Positions 1-1,370 of a stretch of DNA of 1,400 nt are shown here, piece by piece. Where the stretch lies: the NCBI GenBank assembly GCA_000004985.1, contig GG739430.1; one strand, written 5' to 3'. Source of the stretch: Naegleria gruberi. Taxonomy: Eukaryota. The notes beneath the pieces were generated by a model, which saw only the letters and a list, made by a program, of their open reading frames with translations, did no database searches and had not been told where the DNA came from. Numbering within the stretch: position 1 is the first letter of the stretch; the number at the start of each line of letters is the position of its first letter. Made by a program: the position numbers and the translations under genes.

Positions 1-349
1 TCAATTTAAATCACAACATTACATGTCTAAATATATTAATGAAAAAAATAAAAATTTAAATTAAATGTGAGAGACTCGATTTGTTTTGATATATATTTGG
101 ATAATCTGTTTATATTTCAAACTTTCATGAATGAATGGCAAAGCATTGTTTTAAATAGAATGATTTATGTACAATTATTCCCTCTCTCATTAAATCTATA
201 TTATCCATCCATGTAAGATATTATTACTCGAATCAACAACTACAGTAAATAGAAAGATTAACAAAAATATCTTAATGGTTATTATTGTCAATGATGATTA
301 AACACGTGTTTATTGTTGTGTACAATAATAACAGAACATTTAATAAAAA
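1..349 (+). promoter_or_regulatory. AT-rich upstream or 5' flanking region of the RING E3 gene, presumed to hold the promoter and 5' UTR.
   Basis: No ORF on either strand. Extreme A/T content with homopolymer A/T runs is typical of Dictyostelium intergenic DNA. The A-run immediately precedes the ATG. Confidence 0.5.
299..312. promoter_or_regulatory. 14-bp perfect palindrome TAAACACGTGTTTA with a CACGTG (E-box/G-box type) core, 38-51 bp upstream of the start codon.
   Basis: The reverse complement is identical. It is a GC-containing palindrome in an otherwise almost pure A/T upstream region. A transcription-factor binding function is inferred only. Confidence 0.3.
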
Positions 350-991
350 ATGATTTCATCATCATCAACTGCCACTACTAGTAATAATAATATGTTATCA
401 TCATCATCACCATCATCACAAATGAATGAATTAGATGATGATCCAATAATAGTTGATTATGTATCAGATATATCAGATAGTGAAGATTTACATTATCAAA
501 ATATTAATACAAATCAATCTACTTTTATTAATGAAATTAATCAATCATCATCATCATCTACCACCAACAATAACACCTCCTCCTCCTCCGATAGTACTAA
601 TAATAATGAATTAAATAATAATAATATAAATAATACAACAACAACAAGTATAATCAATCCATCGTCATCATCTCCGTCATCATCAACCATTGAAACATTA
701 AAATCATCATCCAATTCTACAAATACACAACAACAAGAAGAAAATGATGATGATAATATGTGGTCATGTAATATATGTTTTGATACAGCAAGTGAACCAG
801 TTATAACACAATGTGGACATTTATATTGTTGGTCTTGTATATATAGATGGATGCAAAGTCATTCAACTCAAAATTTACAATGTCCTGTTTGTAAAGCAGG
901 TATTCAACAAGATAAATTAATTCCTATTTATGGTAGAGGTCATTCAAATAATTCATCATCTAATAATAATAATTCTAATTCATCAATCTAA
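350..991 (+). CDS. N-terminal segment in frame 2: a Ser/Asn/Thr-rich low-complexity extension of about 135 aa followed by a complete C3HC4 RING finger and the YGRG motif. It ends at TAA 989-991.
   Basis: ORF from the supplied track. ATG 350 sits in an A-run (taataaaaaaATGa) with an in-frame TAA at 341-343 immediately upstream. Codon usage is strongly A/T at the third position. The RING spacing and flanking motifs match the RNF5/RNF185 family. Confidence 0.85.
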
Positions 992-1370
992 TAATAATAA
1001 TAATAATACTCATTCAAATATACCACAAAGACCTAGAGGACAATATACAGATAGTAGAACAACACCAAATCCAAATTATAATCCATTTCATAATATGACT
1101 AATTTATTTGGTAATTTTAATACAAATACAAATATTGGTGGTGGTTTTACTTCATCTGGTAATCAATTTTTATTTTCAGATGCTTTTAGATTCTTTCCAT
1201 TCTTTGATTTAGCTTCTAATAATTTAAATAATAATAATTTAAATAATTTAAATAATAGAAATCATCCACTTGTACCTCCACCAATTGAACAAGAAGAATT
1301 ACAAGGTTTTGTTAGAAGATTAGCTCTATTTTTAGGTTTTATTTTATTATTTTATATTATTTTTGTTTAA
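350..1370 (+). CDS. RNF5/RNF185-family membrane-anchored RING (C3HC4) E3 ubiquitin ligase, gene-level span. The reading frame is interrupted: frame 2 runs 350-991 and frame 0 runs about 990-1370.
   Basis: The two six-frame ORFs together reconstruct the whole RNF5 architecture. The N-terminal part has the RING C-x2-C-x11-C-x-H-x2-C-x2-C-x14-C-x2-C followed by [20 protein letters not shown] (human RNF5 has [20 protein letters not shown]). The C-terminal part has PQRPRGQ (human PRPQGQRP), a Gly/Phe-rich hydrophobic stretch and a terminal hydrophobic anchor [16 protein letters not shown] (human LFLFLAIFFFFWLLSI). The homology is recalled from memory, not searched. Confidence 0.75.
545..589 (+). 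repeat. Codon-level simple repeat encoding [15 protein letters not shown]; codon choice switches from (TCA)n to (ACC)/(TCC)n.
   Basis: Sequence tcatcatcatcatct accacc aacaataac acc tcctcctcctcc. A second (TCA)n Ser run lies at 398-418, and an (AAT)n Asn run at about 600-640. Confidence 0.8.
767..892 (+). other. RING-HC (C3HC4) zinc-finger domain: [42 protein letters not shown].
   Basis: Eight metal ligands sit at canonical spacing: C140, C143, C155, H157, C160, C163, C178, C181 of the frame-2 protein. tgt codons 767-769 and 890-892 were verified by hand. Confidence 0.9.
941..1029 (+). repeat. G-free (AAT)n/(TCA)n coding microsatellite tract that spans the frame discontinuity.
   Basis: There is no G between 941 and 1029. 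It contains the runs taataataataat and ctaataataataataataatact. Both overlapping frames are open across 930-991. Confidence 0.8.
990..1370 (+). CDS. C-terminal segment in frame 0, part of six-frame ORF 930-1370. It carries a poly-Asn linker, the RPRGQ motif, a GGGF/FxF-rich hydrophobic region, a poly-Asn/Leu insert and a C-terminal transmembrane helix. It ends at TAA 1368-1370.
   Basis: Frame-0 translation from about 990 ([23 protein letters not shown]...) aligns with the RNF5 C-terminal half. The 930-983 part of the track ORF ([18 protein letters not shown]) overlaps the conserved YGRG codons of the other frame and is probably not translated. The exact start of frame-0 coding is uncertain (about 975-1020). 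Confidence 0.7.
   Translation, partial: NNNNNNTHSNIPQRPRGQYTDSRTTPNPNYNPFHNMTNLFGNFNTNTNIGGGFTSSGNQFLFSDAFRFFPFFDLASNNLNNNNLNNLNNRNHPLVPPPIEQEELQGFVRRLALFLGFILLFYIIFV
1137..1217 (+). other. Gly/Phe-rich semi-hydrophobic region ([26 protein letters not shown]), the counterpart of the RNF5 first membrane-associated segment.
   Basis: Resembles human RNF5 GGFQPFGDTGGFHFSFGVGAFPFGFFTTVF. It contains D and R, so it may be amphipathic or re-entrant rather than a clean TM helix. Confidence 0.45.
1320..1367 (+). other. Predicted C-terminal transmembrane anchor ([16 protein letters not shown]), tail-anchor type as in RNF5/RNF185.
   Basis: An uninterrupted run of 16 hydrophobic residues at the extreme C-terminus, encoded by a T-rich tract (TTT/ATT/TTA codons). 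The position matches the RNF5 membrane anchor. Confidence 0.7.

Follow-up and report, generated by a model that had tools for sequence, protein, structure and literature searches.

How the two halves of what appears to be one conserved gene come to stand in different reading frames is the question that this locus raises. Within the window, by which we mean the whole 1,400-nt stretch of DNA analysed (24% G+C), the ORF that starts at the ATG at 350 in frame 2 (350..991) stops at a TAA at 989-991, and frame 0 is open from 921 to a stop at 1368-1370, giving a C-terminus of ...LFYIIFV. The switch from frame 2 to frame 0 falls between 941 and 988, inside a G-free tract (941..1019) that encodes a linker of Asn, Ser, His and Thr residues whose length and sequence vary among relatives. 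The bases that read as six TAA codons in a row in frame 2 (989..1006) are (AAT)n, and thus poly-Asn, in frame 0. (All window features given here lie on the plus strand, apart from the upstream ACGT-core motif, which is given without a strand.) An earlier note on this DNA had described the same split, with IPIYGRG in frame 2 ahead of the TAA at 989-991 and frame 0 open, and its coordinates and sequence statements were right; a base check likewise bore out its statement that 941-1029 contain no G. The G-free run as a whole (940-1029, 90 nt) is the longest in the window but is no signal in itself, because it follows from the codons used, which are AAT, TCA, TCT, CAT and ACT.

Gene identity, relatives and origin

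The first half of the coding sequence (350..940, frame 2), as delimited by the ORF listing and our alignment A2, comprises a low-complexity N-terminus, a C3HC4 RING finger and IPIYGRG. The RING finger (767..895, ORF1 residues 140-182) was identified with Pfam, where zf-C3HC4 (PF00097; E 4.7e-11, 42.8 bits against a cut-off of 21) and zf-RING_UBOX (PF13445; E 2.6e-11) both match ORF1 residues 140-181 and both exceed the curated cut-offs; a PDB sequence search returned generic RING domains only. IPIYGRG lies directly 3' of the RING finger (920-940, frame 2) and is invariant in nine of nine sequences in alignment A2, and the motif IP[IL]YGRG is also found in metagenome relatives. The second half (1020..1370, frame 0, stop at 1368-1370) carries, after the variable linker, PQRPRGQ at 1023-1043, a P-x-R-P-x-G(Q) motif in which P225, R227 and P228 of P-x-R-P are invariant in the alignment. 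It ends in a hydrophobic tail (1308..1367) that aligns with the hydrophobic C-termini of relatives and has a mean Kyte-Doolittle hydropathy of 2.95 over its last 15 residues; we call it a putative membrane anchor by this simple hydropathy measure alone. Homologues are named at source as RNF5 (P0004, P0005 and P0009), as RMA1 or RMA1H1 (P0015, P0016 and P0077) or as RING-type E3 ubiquitin transferase, and it is because of these names and the common order of motifs that we place the gene in the RNF5/RNF185/RMA1 group. Judged from its sequence, the gene is a single-exon, membrane-anchored RING E3 ubiquitin ligase of this type, with anchor and activity predicted. RING and anchor do not, as the DNA is written, stand in one continuous coding sequence, the product being a RING-only protein of 213 aa.

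A protein search with the frame-corrected product found the best matches in Naegleria lovaniensis (C9374_006744, XP_044546889.1, our P0001, encoded on PYSW02000028.1, hereafter L001) and Willaertia magna (P0002, locus L002), with dictyostelids clearly more distant. When the frame-0 half was searched exhaustively with HMMER, only five relatives came up, among them P0103, which is encoded on two metagenome contigs, L003 (ENA ERZ27315067, k141_551649) and L004 (JGI 3300002220, MLSBCLC_10382790). ORF1 matches residues 104-169 of the L003 protein, its RING region, with 86% identity (E 1e-47), and by BLASTP the frame-0 product matches residues 185-298 (E 4e-40), so that the two halves match consecutive parts of one protein, as expected from the earlier proposal that both motifs belong to a single protein of the RNF5/RNF185 type. 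The orthologues are single uninterrupted ORFs in W. magna (L002 3001-3672), on L003 (1939-2835, 298 aa) and on L004 (1956-2864, 302 aa), and the N. lovaniensis gene is colinear across the linker, with a separate frame break near its C-terminus. Among 14 more distant metagenome relatives, 11 have IPIYGR, P.RP.G and a hydrophobic tail within one ORF. Between the window and N. lovaniensis, 50 of 65 RING-region codons are identical, and third-position G+C is 3-11% in the window and 22% in N. lovaniensis.

The window also holds the 3' end of an upstream neighbour gene (2..64, QFKSQHYMSKYINEKNKNLN, stop at 62-64), which matches the C-termini encoded at L001, L003 and L004; the C-terminus of this neighbour reads ..QYRTSHYMAKYIHEKNKN.. 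in L001 and ..QYKTQHYMTKYIALKNKT.. in L003 and L004, and the N. lovaniensis product has no Pfam match on record. Because the nearest relatives are of this kind and the neighbour gene is common to Naegleria loci, the window comes from a Naegleria-like heterolobosean amoeba. The earlier description of the linker as typical of Dictyostelium is contradicted by these matches to N. lovaniensis, Naegleria-like metagenome contigs and Willaertia and by the synteny with L001, L003 and L004, and a dictyostelid origin was ruled out on the same grounds. The check by orthologue comparison that had been suggested was informative with Naegleria- and Willaertia-type loci, which are colinear across the linker; comparisons with dictyostelids and their ESTs would have been uninformative, since dictyostelid orthologues are clearly more distant. 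We note that the two metagenome contigs have 44% G+C and carry the Naegleria-type pair of syntenic neighbour and RNF5-like gene, and that prokaryote-style gene calling fragmented this pair; of the 298-aa ligase, for instance, no more than a C-terminal stretch of 76 aa was called (P0103).

The half of the gene downstream of the break bears the marks of a translated sequence. Past the linker, frame 0 runs on without a stop for 116 codons and reaches the C-terminus usual in the family; at this base composition the chance probability of this is about 3e-5. Over 102 codons aligned with L003, 41 are identical, 31 differ only synonymously and 30 carry a replacement, and the differences in this half are concentrated at third positions (30, 21 and 53 at codon positions one to three). 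One conserved Ser is encoded by AGT in the window and by TCT in N. lovaniensis. Such protein-level constraint excludes an old pseudogene: the downstream half has evolved as a frame-0 protein until now or until very recently. With the downstream frame intact, any real lesion could only be of very recent date, and this speaks for an artefact.

The repeat tract and the place of the extra base

Within the linker lies an imperfect tandem duplication (947..1007), reported by Tandem Repeats Finder (TRF) with a period of 28, 2.2 copies, a score of 99 and a 27-nt consensus, AATAATTCATCATCTAATAATAATAAT, equal to nine codons. Copy 1 (947-973, 27 nt) is identical to this consensus, copy 2 (974-1001, 28 nt) reads TCTAATTCATCAATCTAATAATAATAAT, and a partial third copy follows. 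The first three bases aside, the only difference between copies 1 and 2 is an additional A at 985 or 986 (TCATCAATCT in copy 2 against TCATCATCT in copy 1), so one of the two A's at 985..986 is the likeliest extra base and would most parsimoniously explain the shift. Deletion of either A yields a continuous protein of 339 aa. A scan of single-base deletions agrees as to the region: only those at about 976-988 give a hydrophilic Ser/Asn linker like that of relatives, and those placed 5' of this interval give a linker peptide unlike that of any relative. A 2-nt insertion within 976-988 also restores the hydrophilic linker, and a 2-nt deletion at 985/986 would be equivalent. The earlier suggestion that a single extra base around 975-990 is the simplest account is thus supported and narrowed to 976-988; the placement at 985/986 is not certain, because codon bias in a Ser/Asn tract could partly explain the similarity of the two copies. 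We also considered, and ruled out, that a clean duplication of 28 nt had shifted the frame, for the two repeat blocks are offset by 27 nt and 28 nt respectively, from which it follows that the unit is 27 nt plus a 1-nt indel.

Other codon repeats occur in the gene (350-760 and 1213-1260). These include (ATC/TCA)n runs encoding Ser at 397-418 and 544-558, an (AAT)n run at 598-635, and a 15-nt unit, TAATAATTTAAATAA, present twice at 1217-1247 and encoding NNLNN repeats. Low-complexity tracts of recent expansion abound throughout the protein, and the codon repeats named here are all in frame, unlike 974-1001.

The N. lovaniensis orthologue has a frame break of its own (L001 3880-4014, C9374_006744). 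Its annotated frame ends ...GMAQQQVVFIHLLLNKKNFKALFDDWHSFLDFYYSFTLYL at the stop, and the conserved tail is encoded in the -1 frame from L001 3888, so the annotated C-terminus of XP_044546889.1 is out of frame. The junction falls within 3888-3915 and starts at T_TTG_GGA, that is, at two short homopolymers (TTT/GGG) that formally make up an X_XXY_YYZ heptamer, and the -1 frame ORF extends 27 codons beyond the usual ...IIFV end. The N. lovaniensis assembly is listed as PacBio (PMC9928731, Table 1), and a 1-nt deletion error is therefore likely to lie behind this break. To judge by this case, assembly-level indels in low-complexity linkers of the RNF5-like gene seem to occur.

Accounts of the frame change

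A spliceosomal intron could in principle join the two frames, for example from GT939 to AG1038 (100 nt), giving ...IPIYGRG|QYTDSRTT..., and four GT-AG pairs with donors at 933 or 939, together with several more that use upstream donors, do have the right phase and leave the frame open. The earlier note had named 933..1038 and 939..1038; their phase is correct but they are not the only such pairs, since 933 and 939 can also be paired with 1050 and donors at 882, 891 and 900 serve as well. Its conclusion that no canonical intron bridges the frames nonetheless holds for the longer list, because every phase-correct GT-AG pair deletes either the invariant P-x-R-P or residues of GRG or the RING finger, and both GTCATT and GTAGAG make poor donors. 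When all GT/GC..AG and AT..AC pairs were enumerated none preserved the conserved motifs, and a search of the window for the U12-type consensus found none. An intron that spared the motifs would have to fit within 941-1019, which, being G-free, offers neither a GT or GC donor nor an AG acceptor. The close orthologues all lack an intron here (those of N. lovaniensis and W. magna are annotated as single-exon genes and those on L003 and L004 are single ORFs), and since relatives are colinear and intronless across the linker an intron at this place is highly improbable. Programmed +1 frameshifting at AUC-UAA (986-991), in which the ribosome would pause at the stop, skip U989 and read AAU in frame 0, would produce a full-length ligase from the sequence as written, in a manner resembling antizyme, Ty3 or Euplotes. 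An original-frame stop codon is a known stimulator of +1 frameshifting, and one is present at the shift point (ATC TAA, 986-991), exactly where frame 0 turns into a plausible linker; deletion of C988 gives ...SNSSINNNNNN..., which is identical to the product of a shift after AUC, and the orthologue in N. lovaniensis likewise requires a change of frame, of -1, from the heptamer at L001 3888-3894. The stop does, however, follow trivially from an out-of-frame reading of (AAT)n. A shift at this position is missing in four of four close relatives (L002, L003 and L004 are continuous, and L001 is continuous here), and the N. lovaniensis break is in a different place and in the opposite direction. AUC is unable to re-pair after a +1 slip, the first stop is succeeded by five more TAA codons in its own frame, and the minimum free energy of window positions 975-1110 is -1.5 kcal/mol, weaker than in all 200 shuffles (z +2.48). 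Taken together, the lack of a downstream RNA structure, of a conserved shift and of a long homopolymer argues against recoding, and a literature search found nothing linking Naegleria with programmed frameshifting or with RNF5. We regard a shift at AUC-UAA of this antizyme-like kind as very unlikely, and give slighter credence still to the wider suggestion that the extra base is real and bypassed in this way and that, with the -1-type break of N. lovaniensis as a second instance, Naegleria recodes or tolerates recoding in low-complexity linkers of this ERAD ligase. If recoding did operate, it may set the ratio of a soluble, RING-only ligase to a membrane-anchored ERAD ligase. That transcriptional slippage or RNA editing drops one base from the mRNA is scarcely credible: nothing direct speaks for it beyond the repetitiveness of the tract, and homopolymers in 941-1019 reach 3 nt at most, far short of runs that support slippage. 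Heterolobosean RNA editing is known as mitochondrial C-to-U substitution, not as nuclear deletion.

What is left is an ordinary single-base indel, due either to faulty sequencing or to a recent mutation; this would call for no new mechanism. We propose that copy 2 of the 27-nt in-frame duplication encoding the Asn/Ser linker has one nucleotide too many, which puts the remainder of the gene into frame 0 instead of frame 2; that this base is probably confined to the deposited sequence, where an error of base calling, consensus building or polishing in a very AT-rich tandem repeat would have introduced it; and that the organism would make one continuous protein of about 339 aa with RING, linker, P-x-R-P-x-G motif and hydrophobic tail. 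A single-exon RNF5-type gene split by one extra base, most likely through a sequence artefact, is accordingly the reading we prefer, with about an even chance of being correct as a whole. The frame change, the orthology, the colinearity of four of four close relatives over this linker, the lack of usable splice sites and the constraint acting downstream are shown by the data; we infer both the artefact status and the exact position. An artefact is favoured because the gene is otherwise flawless and the break falls in a tandem repeat in DNA of 15% G+C, where consensus building and polishing are weakest. Against it, a duplication of A to AA is unlike the classic long-homopolymer error of long-read platforms. 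It is possible, though it falls short of an even chance, that the extra base is genuine and marks a recent frameshift allele, strain-specific or confined to one haplotype, that is, a nascent pseudogene or null allele; the ligase may then be truncated after the RING finger, at 213 aa and lacking its membrane anchor, in a clonal, possibly polyploid amoeba. Such an allele is what the sequence as given carries, single-base insertions in repeat-rich tracts are a common spontaneous mutation, platform-specific errors do not typically take the form of A to AA, and an intact copy was not found in the public protein collections searched. There, exact look-ups of ORF1, ORF2, three internal-start ORFs and a 77-aa RING fragment gave no match, nor did those of 17 frame-restored proteins and eight spliced models. 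The failed look-ups weigh little against an artefact, since the source species itself seems not to be represented there at all. Absence from the word-indexed protein searches is also weak evidence, because the index is incomplete: P0001 was recovered in one search and missed in another, and a chimeric 103-aa query that included the C-terminus of the upstream gene gave no matches, missing N. lovaniensis itself. A metagenome scan for a second copy of the locus returned only relatives of at most 43% identity, and the collections searched held no independent copy of it as reads, transcripts or a second assembly. A genuine allele must, moreover, be reconciled with a gene conserved across Heterolobosea and beyond, in which at least 116 downstream codons are intact, conserved to the last residue and different from relatives mainly at synonymous sites, so that such a lesion could only have arisen very recently.

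Upstream motif, significance and known systems

Upstream of the gene, 47 nt before its ATG, lies a motif with an ACGT core (AAACACGTGTTT, 300..311). The pattern A[CT]ACGT[GA]T occurs exactly once per locus of 3-7 kb, always at a distance of 47-73 nt before the RNF5-like ATG. This holds for the window and for L001-L004, where the motif is found at L001 2930-2941, L002 about 2925-2936, L003 about 1879-1890 and L004 about 1896-1907. Its variants are AAACACGTGTT, ATACGTGTTT (L003 and L004) and AAACACGTATT (Willaertia). We take this motif to resemble bZIP sites, for example UPRE-2 (TACGTGT) of yeast Hac1, and a likeness to UPRE-2 would fit control of an ERAD ligase by the unfolded protein response, for which it is a candidate element.

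The case matters mainly for annotation, as a gene caller would either truncate this RNF5-like gene or invent an intron in it. Neither homology searches nor exact look-ups found this conserved RNF5/RMA1-type ERAD ligase in the public protein sets searched, and the RefSeq orthologue of N. lovaniensis has a wrong C-terminus for similar reasons; fixing both genes would complete the Naegleria inventory of ERAD E3 ligases. Should the frameshift be real, the locus would offer a natural truncation allele in which the RING finger is parted from its membrane anchor, and as such be of modest interest.

The gene in the window is like animal RNF5 and RNF185 and plant RMA1, which are ERAD RING E3 ligases of the ER membrane, in that a C3HC4 RING of the form CNICF..EPV.T.CGHLYCW.C is followed directly by IPIYGRG and then by a variable hydrophilic linker, P-x-R-P-x-G-Q, a hydrophobic segment rich in aromatic residues and Gly, and a hydrophobic C-terminal tail. 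It is unlike them in having a low-complexity N-terminal extension of about 135 aa and an Asn/Ser linker, and in that its frame is broken once. With the N. lovaniensis gene C9374_006744 and the orthologues on L003 and L004 it shares the upstream neighbour, the upstream ACGT-core motif, the domain order and the absence of an intron, but in those genes the linker is in frame, and the break in N. lovaniensis lies further downstream. As in stop-dependent +1 frameshifting, for which antizyme (UCC-UGA-U) and Euplotes (AAA-UAA) are the models, a stop in the original frame, here frame 2, stands where the +1 frame continues the protein; the window differs from both in that the shift is not conserved and is accompanied neither by a stimulatory structure nor by a slippery or re-pairing P-site codon.
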